DNA of 64,000 nt, taken from the NCBI GenBank assembly GCA_020241865.1, contig GCA_020241865.1_4709.1; one strand, 5' to 3'. The stretch comes from a phage. Within the stretch, counting starts at the first letter, position 1, and every line of letters starts with the position of its first letter. Below are positions 5,197 through 20,837 of this stretch, in pieces. Position numbers and translations under genes: made by a program. A model generated the notes under the pieces. The model was not told the origin of the DNA. It worked only from the letters and a program-made list of their open reading frames with translations, and did not search any database.

Positions 5197-7755
5197 TTAC
5201 TGCTCTTCACGTTCCAGCAGATACTCGGAAGCGGTAATACCGTTTACCGTACGTACTGCTTTCAGACGAGTATCATCGCTCAGAATTACAGTAACAGATT
5301 GCAGACCTTTTACTTTGGTTTCGAAGGTCTTGAACACCTGATCCAGCATACGAGCAATGCTTGGGTTGGTTGCAGCTGATGCGTGGGTGTAACCGCTTTG
5401 GTTCAGCTTCAGAATCTTGGCGTTGGTCGGTACGCGAACAACAACATGCGGACGCATCGCGAATACGCTGTGATTAAACCAGTAAGCATCGTTGCTATCT
5501 TCGTCGGTAACGATGTCTGGATTAACACGCATATCCTCGACAGCCGCATCCGCCAAACGACGTTCGATTTCGTCAGCATCCAGAGAGCCATCTTTCTCCA
5601 GTTCTGCACGATACTCACTCATGGCAACCAGATGACGTTCACGATTCGCTGCGGATTTTTCGTGAGCGGCTTTCAGGTAGTCATGCATGTTGTACAGTTC
5701 TGCCATGGAAAGACGAATGTTCCACTGACCTTCGCCGTCACGATTGCAGTAGAGACACTTCAGCATGTTGACCCAGGTATAGTAGCAATTGGAGAATTCA
5801 TCTTCAATGAACTTCTGGTCCATTTTAAGATCGTGAATCAGCCAACCGGACAGTTCTCCGATATCATCAACGAAGCTAGAGATGGTGGTTTCAGAGAAGT
5901 TCTTCGGTACGATACGTTTGATCAGCTTATTGACGTCTTTGGTCATGCTATCGTTCAGGAAATGCCAGATACGCAGAGGAATGACATCTCGATACTGTTG
6001 CATGATCTGACGATAAGCTTTGATATCGTCGCTACGACCTTTATCAATAGACAACGCATCCAGGAATTCATGGATTGCATCCAGCTCTTTGTCGGTATAG
6101 GTTCCCAGATAGGAATTGACCGTAGCCAGGAATGCTAATGCGTCGTTTTGGTTGACGTCGGTGTTGGTCTGCTGAATGATCGCTACTGAAGCTTTGGTTT
6201 CAGCATCCTCAACGCTTGACGCTGCGATCGCATCGGTGACGGTAAACAGTTTCATTTCGCGCTGCTCACCGACAACGATTGGCTCACGCTGAACCGGCTT
6301 GTTAAGACTAACGCGAACGACTTCTGCTTGCGCGATACGATCCAGTTTTGCCATTTCCTGCTCTGCCATACGACGAGCGGTTGGATCTGATTCAAGTTCG
6401 ATGTATTCCACTTCTTCCTCCGTGAGGGATGTAATGTCAACAATGGTTTCATGAAGAATTCCGTTTTCGTCGATACGTGCTCGACGAGCGAAGTGCCTGA
6501 AGTCATACAACGTCGGCCAACGACTATTAGGTGCGTAGTCTTTGGCTTTCAGACGCATCTGCATAAATTCTTCATGTTGAACAACACGACCGTAACGCTT
6601 AGCATCTTCGGTCGCATCAATTGGATTAACGGTCTTTGTTGCCGTAGCGGAACGAGCCGTACGAACCGGTTCCGGTTTCACCTGCGTCGGTTCAGGTTGA
6701 ACGGGTTTCTGCTGTCCAGCCTTAACATGCCATTCTGGCTCTTCGTACTGTTCAGCAAATTGCTCAGCCGCTGCAAAGATATCGTTGATACCACCAATAT
6801 CTCCTTCAGGATTTGTCGAGTAAATCCGTGGTTGTGGTGCCTCGTAACGCGGCGCTGTAGCAGCAGGTGCGTCATCAACGATAGGATCGTCATCACCAAC
6901 ATCATACAAACGGTTGAACGCACAATCCTTCGAATCAATGTACGATGGCGCTTGTGGTTGGACAACCGTCGGCCGAGGTTGTGCGCCGTATCCTGGTGTT
7001 GTTGGAGCCATGCCGCGCATAACTGCCGGACTAGGTTGGTATTGCGGTTGCGGATAGGTTCCACCATACATGGCGTACGCAGGCTGTTGTGGTTGACCAT
7101 ACCCGCTGCTAACCATCGCACTTGCTTGCGGCCCACGATAAGTCATCCCCATCTGCATCACCTGCTGCTTCAAACCACGTGACTTCTGAGCGATTTGCGC
7201 CAGACTCCCGCTTTTATTCAGCTGCGTGTACTTATTCGCGGCTTCCGGGTTAATGCGTGATAATTCAATCGCGCGATAATATTCCGGGTACTGATTCGGT
7301 TCAAAGAGCCACGTTACAAGATGATACAGCGCAACTGTACTCACGGCAGCAGAGACGATCTGGTCATCGGACGCGTTCTGTGGCATCGGGTTGATGTAAG
7401 AGAATACGTTCCAACAACAGTCTTCAACAAGCGATTCCATCATCATATCGTTATTGGTATAACGTGCGACGAACTCGGTTTGTATTTTGTCTTGCTGAGC
7501 GAAGTCTTTCAGGACATTAAAGATGGCTTGACGGATTTTGACGATCGTCGCTTCTTGGGTGATGAAGTTATAGTTCTGCTGATATGAGGGTTGTTGGTAT
7601 TGTGGTGGTTGATAGGCGTTATTCGGGTATGCGCCGTACGGCGATTGCTGATACTGTTGCTGGCGAACCTGTTCAGCCGCATAATTAACCGTGCTCGTAT
7701 AAGGGTTTTCGCTATAACCCATTTGTTGATACATGTTGTTACTGCCATTATACAT
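5197..7755 (-). CDS. hypothetical protein (852 aa) with Q/Y/P-rich low-complexity N-terminus and internal segment
   Basis: ORF track; ATG 7755 with AAAGGA upstream; long stop-free antisense frames suggest codon bias. Confidence 0.85.
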   Translation of the reverse strand: MYNGSNNMYQQMGYSENPYTSTVNYAAEQVRQQQYQQSPYGAYPNNAYQPPQYQQPSYQQNYNFITQEATIVKIRQAIFNVLKDFAQQDKIQTEFVARYTNNDMMMESLVEDCCWNVFSYINPMPQNASDDQIVSAAVSTVALYHLVTWLFEPNQYPEYYRAIELSRINPEAANKYTQLNKSGSLAQIAQKSRGLKQQVMQMGMTYRGPQASAMVSSGYGQPQQPAYAMYGGTYPQPQYQPSPAVMRGMAPTTPGYGAQPRPTVVQPQAPSYIDSKDCAFNRLYDVGDDDPIVDDAPAATAPRYEAPQPRIYSTNPEGDIGGINDIFAAAEQFAEQYEEPEWHVKAGQQKPVQPEPTQVKPEPVRTARSATATKTVNPIDATEDAKRYGRVVQHEEFMQMRLKAKDYAPNSRWPTLYDFRHFARRARIDENGILHETIVDITSLTEEEVEYIELESDPTARRMAEQEMAKLDRIAQAEVVRVSLNKPVQREPIVVGEQREMKLFTVTDAIAASSVEDAETKASVAIIQQTNTDVNQNDALAFLATVNSYLGTYTDKELDAIHEFLDALSIDKGRSDDIKAYRQIMQQYRDVIPLRIWHFLNDSMTKDVNKLIKRIVPKNFSETTISSFVDDIGELSGWLIHDLKMDQKFIEDEFSNCYYTWVNMLKCLYCNRDGEGQWNIRLSMAELYNMHDYLKAAHEKSAANRERHLVAMSEYRAELEKDGSLDADEIERRLADAAVEDMRVNPDIVTDEDSNDAYWFNHSVFAMRPHVVVRVPTNAKILKLNQSGYTHASAATNPSIARMLDQVFKTFETKVKGLQSVTVILSDDTRLKAVRTVNGITASEYLLEREEQ

Positions 7756-7789
7756 TTCTTACGATCCTTTTTATTTATTCGGTTATGTG

Positions 7790-9586
7790 TCAATCGATTA
7801 TGTCGTGATCGTTAATTTCTACAATTTCTTCATCGAATCGACCGACGTCTTTCTTCAAGCCTGCATTGGTTGCTGCAACGTCATTTGCAATTTGTGGGGT
7901 AATGATTAACCGACCGCGCTCATCGATAGGTGCGTACATACTGAACTTCTGACGTCCGGTTGGTTCGGAGTGTGGAAGATTCAGATAGCTTGCACAGAAC
8001 GGGATGGAACCACTAACCAAACGACTCTCGTCAGCCAATGCAGCACCGCCTGCGTTTTGGCTCTGGAGAACAACATGCGTGCTCACTTTGAACAGCATGC
8101 AATCACCCGGTGACTGAATCGATGTTGCCACTTTCTCACGTTTATCACGATTGCTCTGGATATTGAGAATCGCTTCCGTTGCAACTTGATTTCGCAACGC
8201 CTTCTGTACATCGCGATTGGTCATCTCTTTACGGTTGTTCTGTCGTTTACCACGTTCTGTGGTTTTAAGATGGAACCCCAGTTTAAAGATGCTCTTACGC
8301 ACATCCTCCATGACATATTCCAACACCATCAATTCCTTACCGAACATCGTCGTGGTATCAACACGACTCATTTCGATAGTAACATTGTCAATCAGATAGG
8401 CCATAAATTCATAGAAGTCGTCGCAAGGAATATTTTCCTGTTTGAACTTCTTCTGCTGAATTTCGTCAACGTAAAGATCGAGACTGTCGATGTGGTGGTT
8501 TACATCACGCAACAAACGCGCATCCGCATTGTTGTTATTAAAGATAATCAAACCGAGTAATGTACGCCAATGGTCTGGCGCATTCGCGAACTCTTCAACC
8601 GGATAGTCTTCCGGAAAACGATCGTAATAACGGTCGATGAGATACAAGAATGCACCGACAAGGCCAAGAACAATACGTTCCGTGCCTCCACGTCTTACTG
8701 CAATTTGAATATCAGGATGTTTGTAACGTACAGCGCTAGCGCTACGGCTTTTACCGCTTTTGCTGATACTAAAACCTTTAGGAATAACCCCCATGGTGCG
8801 ATAGATTACCCATTGGTCACGCGGAAAATCACGTTCAGCAAGGTTCCGTCCGGTTACGGCTTCGACACCTGCAAAACGTCGGAAACACTCACCCACCCCG
8901 TACTTCGCAAAGAGATAGTGACCCAGTGTGGTTACGCTGGTGTGGTTGATGTTGTCACCGTTCACTTTACTTTGTTTGGTAAGATGATAGATTTGTGACC
9001 AGGGTAATGACAGGTAATGACGATAATCGATACCGGTCGGTGTATCATTGCTCAGGAACTGATACGGTGTACGTTTAACCGTGATTTTGTCACGCGGAAG
9101 CATGATGAACGCCATGTCTTTCGTGTAACTGATTACCGGGTCAGCGAGCACTGCACTGAGAATGAAGTTCGCACCACGTAGACGCATTTTACCACCCTGA
9201 CCTACCGCGGGTAATAGGAGAGGATGTCGGATAATGCAGTAGTCCTTTCCGGGTTCACGACGGTCACCTGATTCCATCGCTCCGTACCAGCGGAATTCTA
9301 GCATCACCATAAACACATCGGATGGCGCAAGGTCGAAGGTCAGCTTACCGCTATCCTTCCCTTTGGTTTTCTTTCCTCCGCTTAAGTAGTGGAACTGTTC
9401 GCGGGCCATACAGCGACGCAGGCCATGATACACCAGATCCTTAGGTAAACTATCTTTGCTGTTCCGCCAAAGACGATCAACATAGGACTCAACATCTTGC
9501 ATCTTATCGACGACGATGTTGCGTGCTATCTTCTCGTTCATCTTCGGTGCAAGCCCAGCGACAGCTTTGCAGAATCTAGGATCCAT
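7790..9586 (-). CDS. hypothetical protein (about 598 aa)
   Basis: ORF track 7790-9589 starts at GTG; ATG at 9586 has AAAGGAG 6 nt upstream. Confidence 0.85.
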   Translation of the reverse strand: MDPRFCKAVAGLAPKMNEKIARNIVVDKMQDVESYVDRLWRNSKDSLPKDLVYHGLRRCMAREQFHYLSGGKKTKGKDSGKLTFDLAPSDVFMVMLEFRWYGAMESGDRREPGKDYCIIRHPLLLPAVGQGGKMRLRGANFILSAVLADPVISYTKDMAFIMLPRDKITVKRTPYQFLSNDTPTGIDYRHYLSLPWSQIYHLTKQSKVNGDNINHTSVTTLGHYLFAKYGVGECFRRFAGVEAVTGRNLAERDFPRDQWVIYRTMGVIPKGFSISKSGKSRSASAVRYKHPDIQIAVRRGGTERIVLGLVGAFLYLIDRYYDRFPEDYPVEEFANAPDHWRTLLGLIIFNNNNADARLLRDVNHHIDSLDLYVDEIQQKKFKQENIPCDDFYEFMAYLIDNVTIEMSRVDTTTMFGKELMVLEYVMEDVRKSIFKLGFHLKTTERGKRQNNRKEMTNRDVQKALRNQVATEAILNIQSNRDKREKVATSIQSPGDCMLFKVSTHVVLQSQNAGGAALADESRLVSGSIPFCASYLNLPHSEPTGRQKFSMYAPIDERGRLIITPQIANDVAATNAGLKKDVGRFDEEIVEINDHDIID

Positions 9587-9625
9587 CACACACTCCTTTC
9601 AGAAAGTTGCTTAAGCAGATTAAAG

Positions 9626-11062
9626 TTACTTTTTCGATGACGCTTTCTCAAGAATCTTGAAAAAGGTCATACCTATACCGACAACGGCCGCGGTTATGCT
9701 CGCAGCGGCTTTCCAAACATCGACGTTACGTTGACGTCGCGCTTCTTCCGCTTCACGTTGTCTTTTTGCCTCTTCATCACGTCGACGTATCTCAGCAGCA
9801 AACTCGTCGTGCTTACGTTTGGATTCTTCGTCTCGACGACGAAGTTCAGCGACGAATTCTTCATGTTTGCGTTTAGCCTCGTCATCACGACGTTTTAAAT
9901 CAGCTTGATAATCTTCGTGTATTTGTCTACGTAGATCATCTTGACGTTTCATTTCGGCTTGGTGTTGTTCCATCCTACGTTTTTGTTCGTCTTTAAGCTG
10001 ATCGAGTTCGGCTTTATGTTGTTCATCACGCAGCTTTGCGTCGGCGCGATGCGCCTCATGCATCTGTGCGATAACTGCCTTGTGTTCATCCGCCATACGT
10101 CGCATTTCAGCCATCACCCCTTTAAGGGTTTCTTCTGATGCCTTACGTTCGTAGCTACGTTGGTCGAAATCATTTTTGTAGGCTTCTTTTTGGATGGGGT
10201 CGCGCCAATGCAATGCCGATTCACGCGTCGGAAAAACATTGTACTTCCACATCTCTTTTTCCAAATCTTCGACCGGTACGAAGATGGAGTCATTATTCCC
10301 GAAGGTAACCAACATACCTGGCGCGCCTGCTCCATTCGTTGGTTTTATTTCGAACGCTTTCCCCAGCACGTTAACCCATAAGCTATACGGATTATGAAAG
10401 TCGGGCGGCGTCCAATGGATAGTGAGTTGCGTTCCGAGAATCCGGAAACCCTCTGTTTTTCCCGTCAAGCTCCGCGCGCACGTTGCGATGTAGGGGTGAT
10501 CAATCCCTTTCGTAACGTGGTCTGCGCTTTTGTATTCTCCTTTAACTTTTACGATTGCCACGTTGATTTGCGCGACATAAGCAGGTTGATTAAAGTTCAG
10601 CGTGTTGAGGTCAATTTGACATATTTCATCCAGCGTATCGTACCAGTCTTGCTGGTCTAATAGACGCGGCATTTTCTCTGTGTTAACAATACGACGGATA
10701 TGCGGTTTCCTTATCGCGTAACCTGTGCCGTTTTTAACACGGAGTATATCCCGACGTCTACCCGCGTAGACGAAGTTTCTGAATGCACCATTCGCATTAG
10801 ATACGTCATGGCTGTCAACTATTACAGGACTACGAAATTTTGAACGTCGTACGATCCTGAATGTATTGCCGTCCTCAACCCTACCAGGAATGTACTGGAA
10901 CATATTGTCGGAGGTGATAACCAACACGGTATGGCCAGATTCATTAATACATGCCCATCCTAATTCCAGGTCATATAACGGTTCAGCATAACCGTCAATG
11001 CGATAAGCGTGCGTACCATCCCACGGTTCGAACGCGGTATCACATATTGGCATGGAGGGCAT
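9626..11062 (-). CDS. tail-anchored membrane protein candidate: globular N-domain, charged repeat helix, C-terminal hydrophobic segment
   Basis: ORF track (track start 11068 is TTG; ATG 11062 has GGAGG 7 nt upstream); in-frame repeats RRRDEE-x-KRKH-x-EF; hydrophobic stretch AAASITAAVVGIGMTFF near C-terminus. Confidence 0.8.
   Translation of the reverse strand: MPSMPICDTAFEPWDGTHAYRIDGYAEPLYDLELGWACINESGHTVLVITSDNMFQYIPGRVEDGNTFRIVRRSKFRSPVIVDSHDVSNANGAFRNFVYAGRRRDILRVKNGTGYAIRKPHIRRIVNTEKMPRLLDQQDWYDTLDEICQIDLNTLNFNQPAYVAQINVAIVKVKGEYKSADHVTKGIDHPYIATCARSLTGKTEGFRILGTQLTIHWTPPDFHNPYSLWVNVLGKAFEIKPTNGAGAPGMLVTFGNNDSIFVPVEDLEKEMWKYNVFPTRESALHWRDPIQKEAYKNDFDQRSYERKASEETLKGVMAEMRRMADEHKAVIAQMHEAHRADAKLRDEQHKAELDQLKDEQKRRMEQHQAEMKRQDDLRRQIHEDYQADLKRRDDEAKRKHEEFVAELRRRDEESKRKHDEFAAEIRRRDEEAKRQREAEEARRQRNVDVWKAAASITAAVVGIGMTFFKILEKASSKK
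9775..9915 (-). repeat. in-frame tandem repeats inside CDS 9626-11062 encoding charged helix repeats
   Basis: Repeated DNA units visible at about 9780-9900 translating to KRRDDEAKRKHEEFVAELRRRDEESKRKHDEFAAEIRRRDEEAKRQ. Confidence 0.7.
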
Positions 11063-11211
11063 CGTCAACCTCCATCTGATTGAAAACTATCACGCATAAT
11101 ACATTTCCCTTTTCTTGTTCTTATCGAGCCGACAGCCGACGGTTTCAGCATCGTTCCTAGCGCGAGAACGACCTTACGTGTTGTCTATGCCTTATTCATC
11201 GCAGGCGTCTG

Positions 11212-11300: not shown

Positions 11301-11399
11301 CTGACTTATGTATCACGGTGCCGGATGAATGTCCGGTGCAATGAAACCATCCGCAACGTTGTCGTCAAGAATATCGTCCAACGAAGCAGCTACGGTAGT

Positions 11400-13622
11400 T
11401 CAGTTAGTCTGAACAGGCAGCTTGATGTTTTCAGTGTAGACCTTACGCAGGTTCACAACGTTAATCAGACCCAGCAGCGGGCAGTTGTTAACGAAGCGGC
11501 AGCGCGGCTGAACCATGGTTTCTTTAGAAACCTGACCGTTACGGGTAACCTGAGCAACAGATACCAGTTCCGGTACATACAGGAACATACCGAAGGTCAG
11601 CGGATCCGGAGAACCCTGGATACCACGAGACAGGGTCACGAAGATCTTATCGCGCAGCATGACGTTCGGGTTATCTACAACCACGAAGTTGAAGCTTACA
11701 CCAACGGTGCGGAAATCACCATCGGTCTGCAGGAACTGCGGGATGTAGTTGTCAGTTGCTACTACGCAACGCGGTTTCTCATCAGCGTTGGAAGACAGCA
11801 GCTGCAGAGCTGGCTGATAACCAGACTCGGAGTACATGCGGTATGCCATCTCACGAATCACGTTCATGATCGCAGCAGACACTTCAGCACGACGTTCTGC
11901 AGTGGTGGTACCCTGAACAGATTTCTCCAGGTCCAGATTGATTTCTTCGAACCACGGACGGATCAGGTAACGACCGAAACCTTCGATCTGGATGTCGCCG
12001 AACTGACGGAAGCGAGAGGTCGCAACCGCTTTCAGTGCGTCTTTGTAGCTGAACAGTTTCTCAACCATCAGGTTGTCGAAACGTGCGTTAGCAGCTTGGA
12101 TCAGAACGTCCAGGTCAGCAGCGTTTTCTTCCCAATCCAGCGGACGAGGAATGGAGAACGGAGCCAGCAGGCCGATTGCGTAACGTTCTTGCTTCATGTT
12201 GAAGTCAAGGTGCTTACCGCGCTCACGACGGTTGCTGTTGTTACGGCGGATACGCAGTTCGTAACCAACCAGTTTGAAGCTCAGGTCTTCAGCCAGTTGT
12301 TTGAACTCTTCGCTCTTACGCGGTTGTTCGATGTTGTCCTGATCAACCAGGCGATACAGTTCAGCGTTAGCGCCGTTAACACGCAGACCGGCTTTCTCTA
12401 CGTTGGAAGAACCGTAAACTTCGATCGCCAGCTGAGCAGCAGATTTCGCATCGATGATGTCCTGCAGCGCTTCAGCTTTCGCGCCTTTAACGTCTTTGGT
12501 GTTCTCATCAACGAAGATGGAGTGGGTGTCGAACGCCAGGGTCATTTTGCGGAAGTCGCCTTCCAGGGATTTCTGGAAACCGTTGGTGATCAGACCAGAT
12601 ACGTCGAACGGTACGTAAGAGGTTTTGCTGTGCTTGGTAGATTTGATTTCCACCAGGATTTTGGTCAGCGTGATCTGGGCGTCCAGCGCGTCGGTGTTGT
12701 CGCTGTAACCGTTAGCCAGGATGCTATCGTCTTCAGCAATACCGATCATGTCGATCAGTTTATCAACAGCCAGGTAAGACGTTTTGTAAGTTACGCCTTT
12801 AATTTCGATGTCGCGCGGAGCAACGATAGCTTTGTCAACGAAGTACTGTGCGTTAGCATCGTCAGCACGATAGATCGGATGCAGATCGGTCACGTCGTTG
12901 GACAGAACGTCGTTGTACATGAACGCATCCAGCAGCGGACGACGTACCCAATCAGCCGGAGTACCGTCAGCGTTACGACGCAGGTGGTTGAACACCAGCG
13001 GACGACGGAAAGATACGTCGTAACCGATCTGGTTCGGAGCCAGAACGATGGTGTTGTACAGTTCGTTACCCATGCGGCTCAGACGAGAAGCCTTCACGTT
13101 GAACACAACGGAGTACGGCATCATGTCACGCAGTTCTTTCTGGTCGTAGGACAGCTGAACCAGTTCTTCAGATTCGCAACCGCAGGAATCAGCAGCCATC
13201 ATGACGAAGTTAGAGCTGTCAACTTCACGGCCAGACGGAGTGGTGCTGATGTTCATGGAACGTGCTTGTTTAGCATATTCTACCGGGTTACCATGAGCCA
13301 GCATGATCAGTGCTGCTGCACGAGCCTGCTGTGCGTTCATGGTGAACAGCTGTTCTTCAATACGCTGCTTCTCTTCCGGAGTGGTGGTTTCGAAGCCCAG
13401 CATGGACAGAACCGGTTCTTCGGCTTTACGGATGTCGCTGCTGAAGCTCTTAACATCCATTTCGTTAACCAGTTTGTCCATGGATTTGAAATCAACCTTA
13501 GAAGCAGATTCCATAGACAGGAAGGTGTTCTCCAGACCTTTGTCTGCTGGTTTGCTACCATTAGCGGTCAGGAACTGGCGAGTGGCCGCGACCTGTTGGC
13601 TAAGAAGGGTTTTATCATTCAT
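11400..13622 (-). CDS. highly expressed virion protein, candidate major capsid protein (740 aa)
   Basis: ORF track; ATG 13622 with AAAGGA upstream; strong codon bias (CTG, CGT, GGT, GAA dominate) and a 766-aa stop-free antisense frame; size fits jumbo-phage capsid proteins; no motif-level proof. Confidence 0.85.
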   Translation of the reverse strand: MNDKTLLSQQVAATRQFLTANGSKPADKGLENTFLSMESASKVDFKSMDKLVNEMDVKSFSSDIRKAEEPVLSMLGFETTTPEEKQRIEEQLFTMNAQQARAAALIMLAHGNPVEYAKQARSMNISTTPSGREVDSSNFVMMAADSCGCESEELVQLSYDQKELRDMMPYSVVFNVKASRLSRMGNELYNTIVLAPNQIGYDVSFRRPLVFNHLRRNADGTPADWVRRPLLDAFMYNDVLSNDVTDLHPIYRADDANAQYFVDKAIVAPRDIEIKGVTYKTSYLAVDKLIDMIGIAEDDSILANGYSDNTDALDAQITLTKILVEIKSTKHSKTSYVPFDVSGLITNGFQKSLEGDFRKMTLAFDTHSIFVDENTKDVKGAKAEALQDIIDAKSAAQLAIEVYGSSNVEKAGLRVNGANAELYRLVDQDNIEQPRKSEEFKQLAEDLSFKLVGYELRIRRNNSNRRERGKHLDFNMKQERYAIGLLAPFSIPRPLDWEENAADLDVLIQAANARFDNLMVEKLFSYKDALKAVATSRFRQFGDIQIEGFGRYLIRPWFEEINLDLEKSVQGTTTAERRAEVSAAIMNVIREMAYRMYSESGYQPALQLLSSNADEKPRCVVATDNYIPQFLQTDGDFRTVGVSFNFVVVDNPNVMLRDKIFVTLSRGIQGSPDPLTFGMFLYVPELVSVAQVTRNGQVSKETMVQPRCRFVNNCPLLGLINVVNLRKVYTENIKLPVQTN

Positions 13623-13771
13623 TGAAAGTATCCTTTACAGAATTAACTTATATAAGTCGGTCGATAGACCATAGCGTACACGCGTGCATGCGCCACTATA
13701 GTATCAGTAAACACTTACCGTTATTGAGGTCGTGATACAACACTAAAAATGCCGCATAACTTTTCCCTACG

Positions 13772-14392
13772 TCATAAACGACGCAGGCGATAATGGATGG
13801 AACGATTGGTGCAATATGAACGGAACAGCGGCAATTGCGCAACTTCCGCAAGACTCATATTAATTCGCAGGTGTTCAATAACGGCGCTGTAGTTATCAGC
13901 AATACGATCGCTCAATAACTCTTCTGCCAATAAAGGAAGACAATCGACAACAATCGCGATCACATCCTCATTAACATAACGCACCCGAACACTCAACGGA
14001 CGTTTGTCTGGGCTGTAAGTTGGATCCGCCAAACGACGTTCAATATCACGCGGATAGCTCGTCAGTAAATGGTAATAACCATTGTCATAACGATTGATGT
14101 ACTCACACAGCACATCAACATTCTTCTCTGGCGGCAAACCTGTTTCGTCATAGTGATACGCAAACATACCACCAAGCAGGTTGTTAAGATGAACCGCAGG
14201 GTTCGTTTGTTCGTGTTCTTTCGTGATGAAGAAAGGCACGTTCTGGGCTGCGAAATAAAAACCTACATCATTGGGCGATAGTATGCCGAAAAGACTTTTA
14301 GGGTCTAATAACACCTGTAAGTCATCACGCGCATTTCGAATAATCGCGTGTTCTACCCAATTCGGAACGACGAGATATCGGAGTTCCTTCAT
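13772..14392 (-). CDS. hypothetical protein (206 aa)
   Basis: ORF track; ATG 14392 with AGAGG upstream; divergent from 14432 gene. Confidence 0.75.
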   Translation of the reverse strand: MKELRYLVVPNWVEHAIIRNARDDLQVLLDPKSLFGILSPNDVGFYFAAQNVPFFITKEHEQTNPAVHLNNLLGGMFAYHYDETGLPPEKNVDVLCEYINRYDNGYYHLLTSYPRDIERRLADPTYSPDKRPLSVRVRYVNEDVIAIVVDCLPLLAEELLSDRIADNYSAVIEHLRINMSLAEVAQLPLFRSYCTNRSIHYRLRRL

Positions 14393-14431
14393 TATGATTA
14401 CCTCTTTGCAAGTATCGAAAGGATTGAGTCG

Positions 14432-16042
14432 ATGGACCCAAAACAGATAGCCATTAAGATTATTACGTTACTGTTTCGTAATGCACAATTGAACCATCCC
14501 GATCCCAGTACGATCGAACATGTTAAATCCGTCTTAGATAAAGTCGAACCCCCGAAAAACCATCTCGCTACAGACGTAGATAGAGAGGTTTTCAACAACC
14601 TGATGAATACCATTCATTGGATGTTGGAACAACCATTATCGGAACCTTTCGATAAACAACAGTTGTTACAAAGGATACGTTTGGATTGCCTTGAACAAAG
14701 CAATCTTTACGAGATTCTTGCCGACGGACTGTACGATATCGAAGACGACGCTCATATCAGTAAGGTCTGTTCACTCTATTACAACGAATTACGTAATCTG
14801 ATTACCCGTCGTCGTGTTTTCGAAACCTTTAGAAACACGTACATGGATATCAGTAACGGGCGACTTGGGGATAAAGAATTTTTCGATGCAATGGCGAATC
14901 TGAAATTATCGCTAGACAGTATCGAAATGGATACCGAAAATCCCGAAGAGATGTCGTGTATGATTGACGGCTTTATCGCTGACAGCGAAGACGATATCGA
15001 GAAAGTCGAACGTATGTTCGTCAAAGCGATGGAACGTAACAGTCCTGAAGGTGGATTTGTAACCGGCTGGCAAGGCTTTAATAAAATGTTGGGGTCGGTC
15101 GGTGTTTTACGTCGCGGTACCTTAGGACTGATTGGTGCAATGCAGCACCGGAACAAGTCAGGCGTGTTGTTAAAACTGTTCACACATCTGGCATTGTACA
15201 ACAAACCCCATTTCTTTTTCCCGGAGCGAGCAAAGAAAGCATTACTGATTCATTTGTCGACAGAAAACGAAGTGGAAGAAAACACGCTTCAGATATACAA
15301 GAACATGCGAGAACAGGAAACAGGCGAATATGTCGATATTCGTAAGATTGACCCTCGCGAGGCATCACGTTATGTGTTGAAGGTGTTCAACGATGCGGGT
15401 TTCTCTGTTTGTATGCGTCGTGTTGATGGGATGAGTTATAAACAACTCGCTAATCTCATCGACCATTTCGAACGCATGGGTTATGAAGTCATGGCGTTGT
15501 TCATTGACTATCTGAAAATGTTCTCATCGGAAGGGCTGGATAGAAATGGACCGACCGGCGCATGGCTCCAAGAACTCTTCAACAAAGTCCGTAACCTCTG
15601 CAGTGTTAAACGTATTTTAGGCATGACCGTACACCAGCTGTCATCCGATGCGAAGATGCGTGCACGTGATGGCAACGATGAAGAGTTTGTTGACCAAGTC
15701 GCAGGTTTAAGTTACTGGGATGGTTGTAAAGGGATTGACCGTGAGATTGACCTTGAAGTGATTGTTGATATCGTTAAGGAACCGGGCAAACGTCAAAGCT
15801 GGCAAGTCTTTGCATTAGGGAAAGACCGTCAACCGGATAACGGTTCAACGAAACCTGAAGACAAACACTTCGCAATGCCATTCCAAACCATCGGGATGCT
15901 TCCTGATGATTACGGTAAGAAAGCAGTGTATTGCCGCAAGGTTGGCGGACAACCTGTCTCCGAGGGAGGTAAAGGTCCGTGGAACAAGTTCGATGAAAAC
16001 GCAGCACCGAGTAATGAATTACAATTTGATTTAGAATTTTAA
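14432..16042 (+). CDS. DnaB-family helicase homolog candidate with atypical P-loop (537 aa)
   Basis: Track start 14348 would overlap the divergent gene; ATG 14432 has AAAGGA 8 nt upstream. Motifs by eye: GAMQHRNKSG (Walker A with Asn in place of the second Gly), KPHFFFPERAKKALLIHLS, LFIDYLKM (Walker B/H2-like), VHQLSSD (H3-like), in DnaB-like order and spacing. Confidence 0.75.
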   Translation: MDPKQIAIKIITLLFRNAQLNHPDPSTIEHVKSVLDKVEPPKNHLATDVDREVFNNLMNTIHWMLEQPLSEPFDKQQLLQRIRLDCLEQSNLYEILADGLYDIEDDAHISKVCSLYYNELRNLITRRRVFETFRNTYMDISNGRLGDKEFFDAMANLKLSLDSIEMDTENPEEMSCMIDGFIADSEDDIEKVERMFVKAMERNSPEGGFVTGWQGFNKMLGSVGVLRRGTLGLIGAMQHRNKSGVLLKLFTHLALYNKPHFFFPERAKKALLIHLSTENEVEENTLQIYKNMREQETGEYVDIRKIDPREASRYVLKVFNDAGFSVCMRRVDGMSYKQLANLIDHFERMGYEVMALFIDYLKMFSSEGLDRNGPTGAWLQELFNKVRNLCSVKRILGMTVHQLSSDAKMRARDGNDEEFVDQVAGLSYWDGCKGIDREIDLEVIVDIVKEPGKRQSWQVFALGKDRQPDNGSTKPEDKHFAMPFQTIGMLPDDYGKKAVYCRKVGGQPVSEGGKGPWNKFDENAAPSNELQFDLEF

Positions 16043-16063
16043 ACGCAAAAAAAAAAAGATTGT

Positions 16064-16112
16064 GCGGTTCCCTCCTCCAACCCGTAAGGGAAGGAGGAGG
16101 GGTTATGACCGC
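16064..16112. terminator. GC-rich stem-loop CCCTCCTCC-AA-CCC-GTAA-GGG-AA-GGAGGAGGG with extended flanking stem GCGGT/ACCGC, between convergent genes
   Basis: Perfect inverted repeat; A11 tract 16047-16057 gives a U-tract after the hairpin for minus-strand transcripts. Confidence 0.65.
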
Positions 16113-16117
16113 TTTGA

Positions 16118-16444
16118 TTAACTTATTGTCATGAATTCATTAGGTGAAAATTTCCAGCCGTTCTCGGTGAGAAGCGTGTTGAGTTTCGCTGCAACGATAA
16201 GCCATGCGTGCATGGCTGTTACATCGTATTGGCGATTCACTCGACGTTGGTTTTCGATATTGATTTGCTCCTGTTCAGTGATGTTTGGATAAAGTGCGAT
16301 AGCGCTAGGTTTACCCAGCGCGCTAGTCATCACCGCCGTACATTCACTGATAATGTTGTTTAAGTGGTAGTTATACACCGTTCCACGCATGACGCGATGA
16401 CGGCATTCGATAATAGCGTCGTAAATGATTTCTCGAGTAATCAT
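16118..16444 (-). CDS. hypothetical protein (108 aa)
   Basis: ORF track; no clear SD, possibly coupled to upstream gene. Confidence 0.6.
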   Translation of the reverse strand: MITREIIYDAIIECRHRVMRGTVYNYHLNNIISECTAVMTSALGKPSAIALYPNITEQEQINIENQRRVNRQYDVTAMHAWLIVAAKLNTLLTENGWKFSPNEFMTIS

Positions 16445-17492: not shown

Positions 17493-17567
17493 CGTTTTTA
17501 CCTTTCTATGTTAGGTGGATTGCGGATAGAAGAATCAATGCATAGACTGATTTAAGTTTGTTAAGGT

Positions 17568-18470
17568 TTACTTAGTCTTCGAGTTACAAGGACTGACATG
17601 TTGTTGTACTCGTTGAATCGTATCGTAGTACGGGTTAGATTGGTTGAACATGCTGTTGTGTGGATGATAGCCGTATGGCGCATTTTGCCTTGTTGATGAG
17701 AAACCTTGTTGAGAAGGACGATTTGAATTAACCGCGAGTACGTAGTAAACCAAATTTTGACGGTCGAACGTTCCTTCGTTTTTGAAGGTGTCGGCGTAGG
17801 TGTTTATCGCTGGAGCGAGTCTATCACCATCGGCGGTAATAATTGTACCGTCTGGGTAAACTTCACGAACGACGCACCATGTTCCGATAAGAACGTCTTT
17901 GGGCGGCGTATTGCCGTATCCGGTTGTAACGGTAAGGTAAGTATCGAACCCTTCAGAACAACAAGGATGACGATAGATAGGTCCTGTCATTTCCGTTCTA
18001 TCGGTATCGTCGCATTTCTCTATCGAGAGCGATGGTGTGTCGGTTTTGAAATTGTCAAATTCTTTCTTTAAGTCGATTACAGGTTCTTTCGTATAGTACT
18101 TCTTGATTGCTTTGACGTAAAGATCAGGAACGGTTGTCAGCATTCCGTTATACCTGATTCTCAGGTTTTCGAGTAATCCAAAGATACTCGCGCATGCTTG
18201 TTCGCGAGGTTTTGTAAGATAAGAGATCCCCCCAGGAACGCTGGGATCTTTGAGAAAGAAGATTGCGTTATTGTCGTTGTGCAGTGCGTTGAAGAAAACG
18301 ATTGATTCGATATATACGGAGCATAGGCTGTCGTTGGCGTCGTCAGATAACACCCAGATGCACTCATCGGTCGTCTTGTTTAAAAGTTCTGTTTTGTCCA
18401 CCAAACGTTGTTTCATTGCGAGGAAATGTGCCTGTTGTTCAGCGGATAATTCACGATAAATAGTGGTCAT
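17568..18470 (-). CDS. hypothetical protein, tandem paralog of 18556-19329 (about 300 aa)
   Basis: Track ORF 17568-18548 trimmed to ATG 18470 (AAGGAG 6 nt upstream); shares IY-HP-C...YL-T-G and REVYPDG-I motifs with neighbour. Confidence 0.8.
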   Translation of the reverse strand: MTTIYRELSAEQQAHFLAMKQRLVDKTELLNKTTDECIWVLSDDANDSLCSVYIESIVFFNALHNDNNAIFFLKDPSVPGGISYLTKPREQACASIFGLLENLRIRYNGMLTTVPDLYVKAIKKYYTKEPVIDLKKEFDNFKTDTPSLSIEKCDDTDRTEMTGPIYRHPCCSEGFDTYLTVTTGYGNTPPKDVLIGTWCVVREVYPDGTIITADGDRLAPAINTYADTFKNEGTFDRQNLVYYVLAVNSNRPSQQGFSSTRQNAPYGYHPHNSMFNQSNPYYDTIQRVQQHVSPCNSKTK

Positions 18471-18517
18471 GTTGAGCTCCTTGATTACGATAAGGATGAT
18501 TGCGGTTTTGTGATGCT

Positions 18518-18546
18518 GGTAGGGCCCTAAACAAAGGAGCCCTACC
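18518..18546 (-). terminator. stem-loop GGTAGGGC/GCCCTACC between tandem paralogs
   Basis: 8-bp inverted repeat with 13-nt loop in the spacer between stop 18556 and start 18470. Confidence 0.5.
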
Positions 18547-18555
18547 AATATTGGG

Positions 18556-19329
18556 TTACTCAGGATCGGCGTAGAAATGGTGAGGATAGCCGGAGTACGA
18601 TCCCGCGTTACCGGCTATGGATTCTTTCTGGGAATCGACGACGAGCGCATAGAACTGTCGGGAATTTGTTAGCGTTGAGAAATAAGCGGAAAGGACTTTT
18701 TCATTCAACGCATCGCAAGGTAGACAGGTGCGACCGCAAAACGTCACGATACGGCCGTCGGGATAGATCTCACGAATCATTCTCCACTCACCGATATCCA
18801 CTGGTGATGGCGCTGCTACACCACCTGTTATCGTTAAGTAACGATCGTACGTGGTATGGCATTCAGGATGAATATAGATCGGCTTGTTCGTTTCGACAGG
18901 TTCCGAAGTATCTCGACGACTAAGAAGCTCAACGACTTCAAGATAAATCGTTGGTAGATCGCGGAGAATACCGGTGCTACGACGTTTCTTTGTGATTCGC
19001 GGACGAATCTCGTTGAGAGCGTATTCGAGCTTACGTTCAGCTTCGTACGCATCGAGTTTTATCAGGCGACCCGGTTCATCGGAATGATCCTGAGTTACGT
19101 AAACGAAATACGCGTTGCCTTTTGCAGCGTGAAAGATTCGAGCGACCTTAAATGTTTCTACGGTACGATACCCAAGGCGCGATTGATTTTCCACAGGAGA
19201 AAATATCCAATGTCGTCCTTCGTCCGCCTCAACAATTTCGTTGAAACTATCCGTTTGTTCTGGGACCTGGTAGTCAGCCATTAATGTATCAAGAGCGTCG
19301 TCAGCCAGTTTGATGTAAATATCTGTCAT
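18556..19329 (-). CDS. hypothetical protein, tandem paralog of 17568-18470 (about 258 aa)
   Basis: Track ORF runs to 19542 through the intergenic stem-loop and promoter-like motif; ATG 19329 has GAGGA upstream and begins MTDIYIKL, matching MTTIYREL of the paralog. Confidence 0.8.
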   Translation of the reverse strand: MTDIYIKLADDALDTLMADYQVPEQTDSFNEIVEADEGRHWIFSPVENQSRLGYRTVETFKVARIFHAAKGNAYFVYVTQDHSDEPGRLIKLDAYEAERKLEYALNEIRPRITKKRRSTGILRDLPTIYLEVVELLSRRDTSEPVETNKPIYIHPECHTTYDRYLTITGGVAAPSPVDIGEWRMIREIYPDGRIVTFCGRTCLPCDALNEKVLSAYFSTLTNSRQFYALVVDSQKESIAGNAGSYSGYPHHFYADPE

Positions 19330-19380
19330 GTTTGTATCCTCGGCTATTAAGAGAAATTTACAGTGATAACAGTAACCGTT

Positions 19381-19416
19381 GTTATCACCTAGGTAATATA
19401 GTCGCGAAATAAACTG
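19381..19416 (-). promoter_or_regulatory. conserved promoter-like motif copy 1 (minus strand CAGTTTATTTCGCGACTATATTACCTAGGTGATAAC)
   Basis: Near-identical 33-nt copy at 57405-57437; contains TATATTAC; about 50 nt upstream of ATG 19329 and just downstream of stem-loop 19434-19465; adjacent inverted repeat TGATAACA-N8-TGTTATCA at 19364-19387. Confidence 0.5.
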
Positions 19417-19433
19417 GGTTAGACAGTATATGA

Positions 19434-19465
19434 CCCTCTCCCAACCCGTAAGGGAAGGGAGAGGG
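19434..19465 (-). terminator. GC-rich stem-loop CCCTCTCCC-AA-CCC-GTAA-GGG-AA-GGGAGAGGG (family member)
   Basis: Perfect inverted repeat starting 5 nt after stop of gene 19470-20837. Confidence 0.65.
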
Positions 19466-19469
19466 AATA

Positions 19470-20837
19470 TTAAACGGTTGGACGAACAGTATTGTCTTTT
19501 TCTGGTGCAATCCATAACGTGACTGTACCATGGCATGTCCACTGCGGTTCACGCACAGAAGAACCTGCCATTGTAACAGCGCAATCGGTACGCATGATAA
19601 CCCCGTATGCTTCGCAGAGATTGTTATCCTGCATCCACACAACTTTAGCGGGCATGCCAGGATACAACAAATCCATGTTTGCGTATTCCCACACCAACTG
19701 CATCGTTCTACCGCGTAATCCGGCAGTATTGCTTAATTCACGCCATCGGTTATCGGTTACGCGTCCCATCCCTTTCGCCACTTTCACGTTATCGCTACGT
19801 TCTTCAGTTACGTACTCGCTAACGTTTACGGTACGACTGATGATCGTATCACCCCCTTTTGATAATGTCATTCCCTGACTCATCTGACTTGCCGAAACAA
19901 AACGCCCACCCGCATTACCTAACAACGAAGCCGCGTTATTGATGTCGCTTACCGACGCCCCTCTCGTACACGCAATTTCCACGTATTTGTCACGATTGAT
20001 CCAGGTCTTGTCCATGCCCGGAAACATATCGGCAGGATAGTTGTAAAAGATCGCCGTGCGCCGACCGTCAGAGAAACGGGTTTCGTCGTATAAGGGGTAG
20101 ATATACAGATACGGGGATTGATAATAACAACCGACGTCAGCTGAATAAATACCGACCTGGTTCTGTATTTTATCTACGAGATCCATCGCATTGGTACCGT
20201 GTGGAAGAATAAGCAACTTGAATGGGTTGTCGTTATTCGGTGCAACAATATCCACACCCTGCATTTTGAATCCGGTGTCAGCTTCAACCGCAGAAAGTAT
20301 CTTGCTGAATTCAAGTCGCAGTACATCCAGCACTTTCGACCCAGTATAGTTCTCACCGGTTTCTGATTGCATGAAGCTTTCAAGAACAGGATCGAACAGT
20401 TGAAATTGAAGATCGACCATTTGTTCGTAGTCTTTCTTCGAAGAATCGGTTGCGGTACGTTCGTCGGTAGCGGACATACGACTGTCTACGGTTGTTAAAC
20501 AAACCGCTCGGTAGACGTAAGCTTGTGCGGCATCGTCTACGGTTTGGCGTTGTCCGCGCATCAGGCTGTACGCCTGCACGATGATGCGCATTTTAAGTTG
20601 TTGTTGGTACGGTAGAATGTATTTTCCGTAACTGCCGGGCGGGAACTTTACAGAGATATAGAGTTCATCTCCAGCGTTACGTTCATAGTCTCGATACGTG
20701 TGGACTTGAGTCACTAAAGGAACAGACACCGTCATTGACGGCGTGATTAATTCCGCGGTGACTTTATACGCAACAGCAACTGCTTCCTGCGCAAATGTAC
20801 CGATATACCGTCCTAACGGCGTCTGTTTGTAATCCAT
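19470..20837 (-). CDS. hypothetical protein (455 aa)
   Basis: ORF track; ATG 20837. Confidence 0.85.
   Translation of the reverse strand: MDYKQTPLGRYIGTFAQEAVAVAYKVTAELITPSMTVSVPLVTQVHTYRDYERNAGDELYISVKFPPGSYGKYILPYQQQLKMRIIVQAYSLMRGQRQTVDDAAQAYVYRAVCLTTVDSRMSATDERTATDSSKKDYEQMVDLQFQLFDPVLESFMQSETGENYTGSKVLDVLRLEFSKILSAVEADTGFKMQGVDIVAPNNDNPFKLLILPHGTNAMDLVDKIQNQVGIYSADVGCYYQSPYLYIYPLYDETRFSDGRRTAIFYNYPADMFPGMDKTWINRDKYVEIACTRGASVSDINNAASLLGNAGGRFVSASQMSQGMTLSKGGDTIISRTVNVSEYVTEERSDNVKVAKGMGRVTDNRWRELSNTAGLRGRTMQLVWEYANMDLLYPGMPAKVVWMQDNNLCEAYGVIMRTDCAVTMAGSSVREPQWTCHGTVTLWIAPEKDNTVRPTV

Follow-up and report, generated by a model that had tools for sequence, protein, structure and literature searches.

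A divergent DnaB-like replicative helicase with a glycine-less Walker A loop in a Goslar-like jumbo phage

According to published descriptions, a DnaB-like replicative helicase belongs to the core genes of the chimalliviruses, the nucleus-forming jumbo phages. One hallmark that has been presented for the phiKZ-like Group 1 jumbo phages is a divergent DnaB with the Walker motif modified and the Mg2+ site intact, and the protein was predicted to be active (Iyer et al., 2021; PMC7824862). Moreover, the replicative helicase is one of the six conserved proteins used to build chimallivirus trees, a helicase is placed together with the capsid gene in core block 5, and gp315, the DnaB-like replicative helicase of Erwinia phage RAY, was localised in the phage nucleus (Prichard et al., 2023; PMC10299810). 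The literature describes these phages as having no identified primase. As regards experimental work, the literature that we searched on the chimallivirus helicase comprised annotations, localisation and reviews; we found in it no paper under the family name "divDNAB", and for none of the family members did it offer a purification, an assay or a structure. In this study, we analyzed a helicase gene within a 64,000-nucleotide stretch of phage DNA (hereafter the window; GenBank assembly GCA_020241865.1, contig GCA_020241865.1_4709.1). We found that the gene is a member of this already catalogued family, and that its product very probably functions as an active ring helicase in the manner of DnaB.

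The reading frame of the helicase starts with an ATG at 14432 and ends with a TAA at 16040-16042 in the list of open reading frames (ORFs). A longer version starting from a GTG at 14348 was rejected, because it would overlap the divergent gene at 13772-14392 (-) and is at odds with the N-terminus MDxKLL that characterizes the family. Hence, the start of the coding sequence was set at 14432. The gene is 97.6% identical in nucleotides and 99.6% identical in amino acids to gp043 of Escherichia phage vB_EcoM_Goslar, which is named "DnaB-like replicative helicase" in RefSeq. The flanks of the gene are 95-98% identical to Goslar, and thus, judging from the sequence, the window comes from a close relative of this nucleus-forming chimallivirus. 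The next gene but one to the helicase gene, at 11400-13622 (-), codes for the major capsid protein of the phiKZ type (match to PhiKZ_MCP of Pfam, E 5e-218). The order of capsid gene, small gene and divergent helicase gene is common to Goslar, phiKZ and Erwinia phage RAY, where the orthologs are gp043, NP_803684 and gp315, respectively; the orthology of gp315 was confirmed here. The helicase gene thus sits in a phiKZ-like or chimallivirus genome, within the conserved block by the phiKZ-type major capsid gene. The coordinates of the gene and its features are collected in Table 1.

Table 1. Features of the helicase gene and its product, with positions in the window and conservation among 170 aligned family representatives.
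Feature	Coordinates	Strand	Description and basis	Conservation
Divergent DnaB-like replicative helicase CDS	14432..16042	+	Complete, 536 aa plus stop; ORF list, Pfam, PHROG, orthologs, synteny	
AGGA Shine-Dalgarno-like site	14420..14423	+	8 nt before the ATG; read from the sequence, putative function	
All-helical N-terminal domain, aa 1-168	14432..14935	+	Five short helices and a long helical hairpin (H106-141, H147-167)	
Low-confidence linker aa 169-186, then linker helix aa 187-202	14936..15037	+	AlphaFold2; pLDDT <50 at 169-179	
RecA-like ATPase/helicase domain, aa ~205-505	15044..15946	+		
Deviant Walker A loop GAMQHRNKSG	15134..15163	+	N241 at 15152-15154; K242 and S243 kept; translation and DnaB alignment	
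K242, Walker A lysine				170/170
S/T243, Walker A Ser/Thr				170/170
E278, predicted catalytic glutamate	15263..15265	+	Counterpart of E262 (FSLEM) of E. coli DnaB in hhalign	170/170
D359, Walker B aspartate in FIDYL	15506..15508	+	Aligns with DnaB D343	170/170
Q402, gamma-phosphate sensor, HQLSS motif	15635..15637	+	Aligns with DnaB Q384	167/170
K464-D-R466, predicted trans-acting lysine and arginine finger	15821..15829	+	Aligns with DnaB G-K440-Q-R442 (hhalign)	K464 166/170; R466 165/170, Lys in 3 more
Gly/Ser-rich low-confidence tail, aa 506-536	15947..16039	+	Conserved di-aromatic motif PW-NK-F; pLDDT <50 at 507-514 and 522-536	
A11 run (16047-16057) and GC-rich hairpin (16070-16102)	16047..16102	.	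Intergenic, where the helicase gene and 16118-16444 (-) converge; read from the sequence	

With the exception of the capsid protein, nine neighbouring ORFs were without a match in Pfam, and NCBIfam returned no match for the helicase or its two neighbours. A plus-strand ORF of 766 aa (11325-13625) runs antisense to the major capsid gene; it is most likely a shadow ORF, the minus-strand frame with the PhiKZ_MCP match being the real gene. Upstream of the capsid gene, the region 5197-11068 holds three large minus-strand ORFs (5197-7755, 7790-9589 and 9626-11068) with no Pfam match, and for the second one the only annotation of its Goslar counterpart, gp039, is "polymerase", given on the basis of weak similarity. 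On the other side of the helicase gene, a 1.77-kb stretch (17552-19324) has no counterpart in Goslar, and its flanks match that phage at 98.1% and 95.3%. Most of two minus-strand ORFs, tandem paralogs of 326 aa (17568-18548) and 328 aa (18556-19542), lies in this stretch; they resemble each other in their C-terminal halves, and Pfam returned nothing for them. Judging by mapped coordinates, the 63-aa Goslar gp047 appears to be what is left of the latter ORF. A scan for sigma-70 promoters and terminators around the helicase gene gave fewer sites than shuffled sequences, a result that is not informative because the phage uses its own RNA polymerases. The hairpin found downstream of the gene, CCCTCCTCC...GGAGGAGGGG, is separated from the A11 run by 12 nt. 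Classical intrinsic terminators are not spaced in this way, and no call was made at this place in the terminator scan.

The helicase matches the Pfam family PF20307 (divDNAB, "Divergent DnaB-like ATPase") with 402.7 bits (E 1.4e-120), the gathering cut-off being 26 bits, and the match covers positions 3-355 of the 356 in the profile; such a score lies far above what chance would give. It also matches PHROG 3213, "DnaB-like replicative helicase", over its full length (E 1.2e-122). The gene is thus a catalogued divergent DnaB replicative helicase, a PF20307 member that was already known. Family members are found in 282 phage records, usually annotated as DnaB-like helicase, and among those listed all are jumbo phages with records of ~197-323 kb. 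An exhaustive profile search against representatives clustered at 50% identity recovered 1,569 proteins at E <= 0.001, 653 of them at E <= 1e-30.

The preliminary description of this DNA had aligned the C-terminal half of the protein by eye to the RecA-like domain of DnaB. When a single sequence was compared with the PDB sequences by phmmer, nothing relevant was found, and DnaB was reached only with the family profile. A profile built from 18 relatives reached solved DnaB structures by sequence (HMMER, E 5e-5), and hhalign paired family positions 184-470 with residues 177-444 of E. coli DnaB (E 5e-6). Together with the matches to PF20307 and PHROG 3213 and the structural matches described below, these alignments bear out the proposed homology to the DnaB family. 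A Pfam or HHpred search had been suggested for confirmation. PF20307 and the hhalign alignment to E. coli DnaB were positive; the canonical Pfam DnaB_C model (PF03796) had no match at E <= 10 in this protein. The canonical Pfam model of the DnaB N-terminal domain had no reported score for it either. A precomputed PF03796 match is present in three relatives.

The AlphaFold2 model of the helicase (mean pLDDT 78) suggests the domain order of DnaB, with a helical N-terminal domain with a hairpin, a linker, a linker helix, a RecA-like motor and a low-confidence tail. The RecA-like core, on which the DnaB assignment hinged, is therefore present in the predicted structure, and this C-terminal motor is closest to those of DnaB, gp41 and gp4. 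When the model was used as a Foldseek query, the best 50 PDB matches were all DnaB-family helicases, with E-values down to 8e-17 and ~500 aligned columns. Identity to the solved DnaBs is 12-16%, and no family member is found among the solved structures, the best identity to a PDB match being 16%. In this model, the helix at residues 187-202 would be the counterpart of the DnaB linker helix. The N-terminal domain is not recognisable as that of DnaB by sequence, and only weakly by fold in a structure search with this domain alone.

These comparisons also bear on the nature of the motor. The protein could be an active ring ATPase of the RecA superfamily whose main job is not fork unwinding, such as RadA/Sms-like branch migration, recombination-dependent replication or another DNA transaction of the phage nucleus. 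The low identity to solved DnaBs and the missing matches to canonical Pfam DnaB and to NCBIfam are points against a replicative helicase of the DnaB type. Moreover, the usual DnaB partners are missing, since no chimallivirus primase has been identified and we know of no identified helicase loader in chimalliviruses. However, the replicative DnaB and gp41 helicases rank first among the structural matches and are alone in matching over the full length, and the predicted helical N-terminal domain, hairpin and linker helix resemble what is typical of DnaB. RadA zinc-finger or Lon-like domains were not found in the model or in the Pfam results. In addition, the published helicase tree is generally congruent with the trees of DNA polymerase and other core proteins (PMC10299810). 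Altogether, we consider a non-replicative motor distinctly unlikely, and we favor a replicative helicase of the DnaB type.

The Walker A loop of this helicase does not conform to the canonical A/GxxxxGK[ST], as Asn241 occupies the glycine position. HMMER and hhalign agree on the register of the P-loop, both setting GAMQHRNKSG on ARPSMGKT of DnaB. In the profile-profile alignment, N241 corresponds to G236 of E. coli DnaB, K242 to K237 and S243 to T238 (residue numbers include Met1). Thus, the initial observation that Asn replaces the second Walker A glycine, with Lys and Ser kept, is confirmed. Loss of the glycine before the Walker A lysine usually harms nucleotide binding and, to our knowledge, this glycine is almost universal in P-loop NTPases.

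All conservation counts given here come from 170 aligned family representatives clustered at 50% identity. Position 241 is Tyr in 72 of these sequences, Phe in 62, Asn in 18, Trp in 7, Gly and His in 4 each, and Ser and Asp in one each. In other words, it is Y/F/N/W in 159 of the 170, and glycine is absent in 166. The consensus of the family loop is G-A-L-Q-H-N-[YF]-K-[TS]-G. We considered whether Asn241 is an oddity specific to Goslar and rejected this idea, because Asn is found in 18 of the 170 representatives, in varied loop contexts across the family, and nearly all the others lack the glycine as well. The weight given to Asn itself was therefore misplaced: the family trait is the loss of glycine, with Tyr or Phe as its usual replacement and Asn as a minority state. 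Judged from the alignment, this loss is an old trait of the family that tolerates several side chains and gives no sign of inactivation, and the Walker A loop without Gly before Lys is accompanied by intact Mg2+ and catalytic residues. As a separate observation, section 3.4.1 of PMC7824862 speaks of a modified "Walker B"; in the sequences analyzed here, Walker B (DYL) is invariant and it is Walker A that is modified.

Beyond the P-loop, the catalytic Glu, the Walker B Asp, the Gln of motif H3 and the trans-acting Lys and Arg finger all align with their counterparts in E. coli DnaB (Table 1). Three more motifs had been matched to DnaB by eye. FIDYLKMF (Walker B) and HQLSS (H3 sensor) proved to be in register, whereas KPHFFF was placed ~10 residues off. 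KPHFFF forms a loop and not a beta-strand, and the DnaB strand KPVLIFSLEM aligns in hhalign with KKALLIHLSTEN, which points to E278 as the catalytic glutamate. By analogy with the DnaB family, K464 and R466 would act in trans, and the conservation of such residues would imply an oligomeric interface built for hydrolysis.

The preliminary description had left the choice between a divergent active helicase and a degenerate, possibly regulatory or loader-like, paralog. A degenerate DnaB paralog, catalytically impaired and acting as a regulator, scaffold or loader-like factor, would be in line with the missing P-loop glycine and with the lack of a match to the canonical DnaB_C model. Nevertheless, all the residues required for hydrolysis, the Lys and Arg that act in trans among them, are invariant or nearly so in 170 diverged representatives, which is unexpected for a pseudo-enzyme. 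Four members even have the canonical Gly while their active site is otherwise identical, and hence both states are compatible with the same function. Furthermore, the published descriptions give a single DnaB-like replicative helicase, and no second DnaB-type protein that could be the true motor. We therefore attach very little probability to a degenerate paralog. Of the two options, conservation of the catalytic residues and the published status as a core gene support the active helicase, and the degenerate or loader-like one finds no support.

The protein is thus very probably the replicative, ring-forming DNA helicase (SF4, DnaB-type) of a Goslar-like chimallivirus. By analogy with DnaB, six subunits would assemble into a ring around the lagging-strand template, with ATP bound where two subunits meet. 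In the deviant P-loop, the phosphates and Mg2+ would be held by K242 and S243. Water would be activated by the Walker B residue D359 and by E278 as catalytic base, Q402 would sense the gamma-phosphate, and K464 and R466 would reach in from the adjacent subunit. Within the phage nucleus, sequential hydrolysis would power 5'->3' translocation and unwinding, with the helicase running in front of the split family-B polymerase. We infer the ATPase activity, hexamer formation and polarity of the family from what is established for DnaB.

The C-terminal tail deserves separate mention. Tails of this family carry a motif [PA]-[FW]-[FW] and often end in Phe, a pattern reminiscent of the partner-binding tails of T7 gp4 and SSB. 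Column 517 of the tail is F/W/Y in 145 of the 170 representatives, and column 520 in 116. The tails are rich in acidic residues (21.5% vs 14.6%) and poor in basic ones (4.9% vs 12.5%). In the Goslar-like lineage the tail has an acidic end (...ELQFDLEF), and Phe is the last residue in 44 of the 170 sequences, including the ...DLEF of the helicase studied here. The tail of T7 gp4 binds its polymerase in a similar manner. Based on this analogy, one may speculate that the disordered acidic and aromatic tail tethers a partner, possibly within the replisome.

It is also conceivable, albeit rather unlikely, that the family-wide replacement of the glycine by the bulky or polar Tyr, Phe or Asn is adaptive. 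Such a change might alter the binding of nucleotides or its timing, for instance if the motor preferred another NTP or carried a brake of its own. This would be paired with a replisome without an identified classical primase or a known loader, in which the helicase would be joined directly to the split PolB-Rhc polymerase by two of its parts, the N-terminal collar, put to a new use, and the C-terminal tail with its conserved acidic and aromatic character.

As a discovery, the gene carries little weight, because it is annotated in RefSeq, has a Pfam family of its own, and had been described as divergent, with an altered Walker motif, as early as 2021. Its interest lies rather in the biochemistry of a helicase family for which the literature searched gave no purification, and in chimallivirus replication, for which no primase has been identified. 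In addition, the natural series of Y/F/N/W/H/G at the glycine position of the P-loop represents a ready-made mutational panel on how strictly this glycine is needed.

Compared with the helicase domain of T7 gp4 and with Twinkle, the protein has no fused primase domain and bears a predicted DnaB-style helical N-terminal domain instead. With bacterial DnaB, T4 gp41 and SPP1 G40P (SF4), it shares a predicted two-tier architecture and the RecA-like motor, and the Walker A Lys and Ser/Thr, the Glu, the Walker B Asp, the sensor Gln and the G-K-x-R finger can all be aligned. It differs from these helicases in its 12-16% identity to them, in the replacement of the second Walker A glycine and in the unmatched canonical Pfam DnaB and DnaB_C models, and for these phages no cognate primase is known. 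The closest relatives are the other members of PF20307 divDNAB (Goslar gp043, phiKZ NP_803684 and RAY gp315), to which it is similar over the full length, in its place by the major capsid gene and in the glycine-less P-loop. Within this family, the Goslar lineage is set apart by an Asn preceded by Arg where most other members have Tyr or Phe, by two additional loop residues (HF) following NKP and by a longer acidic C-terminal tail. Overall, these are no differences of substance from the other PF20307 members.
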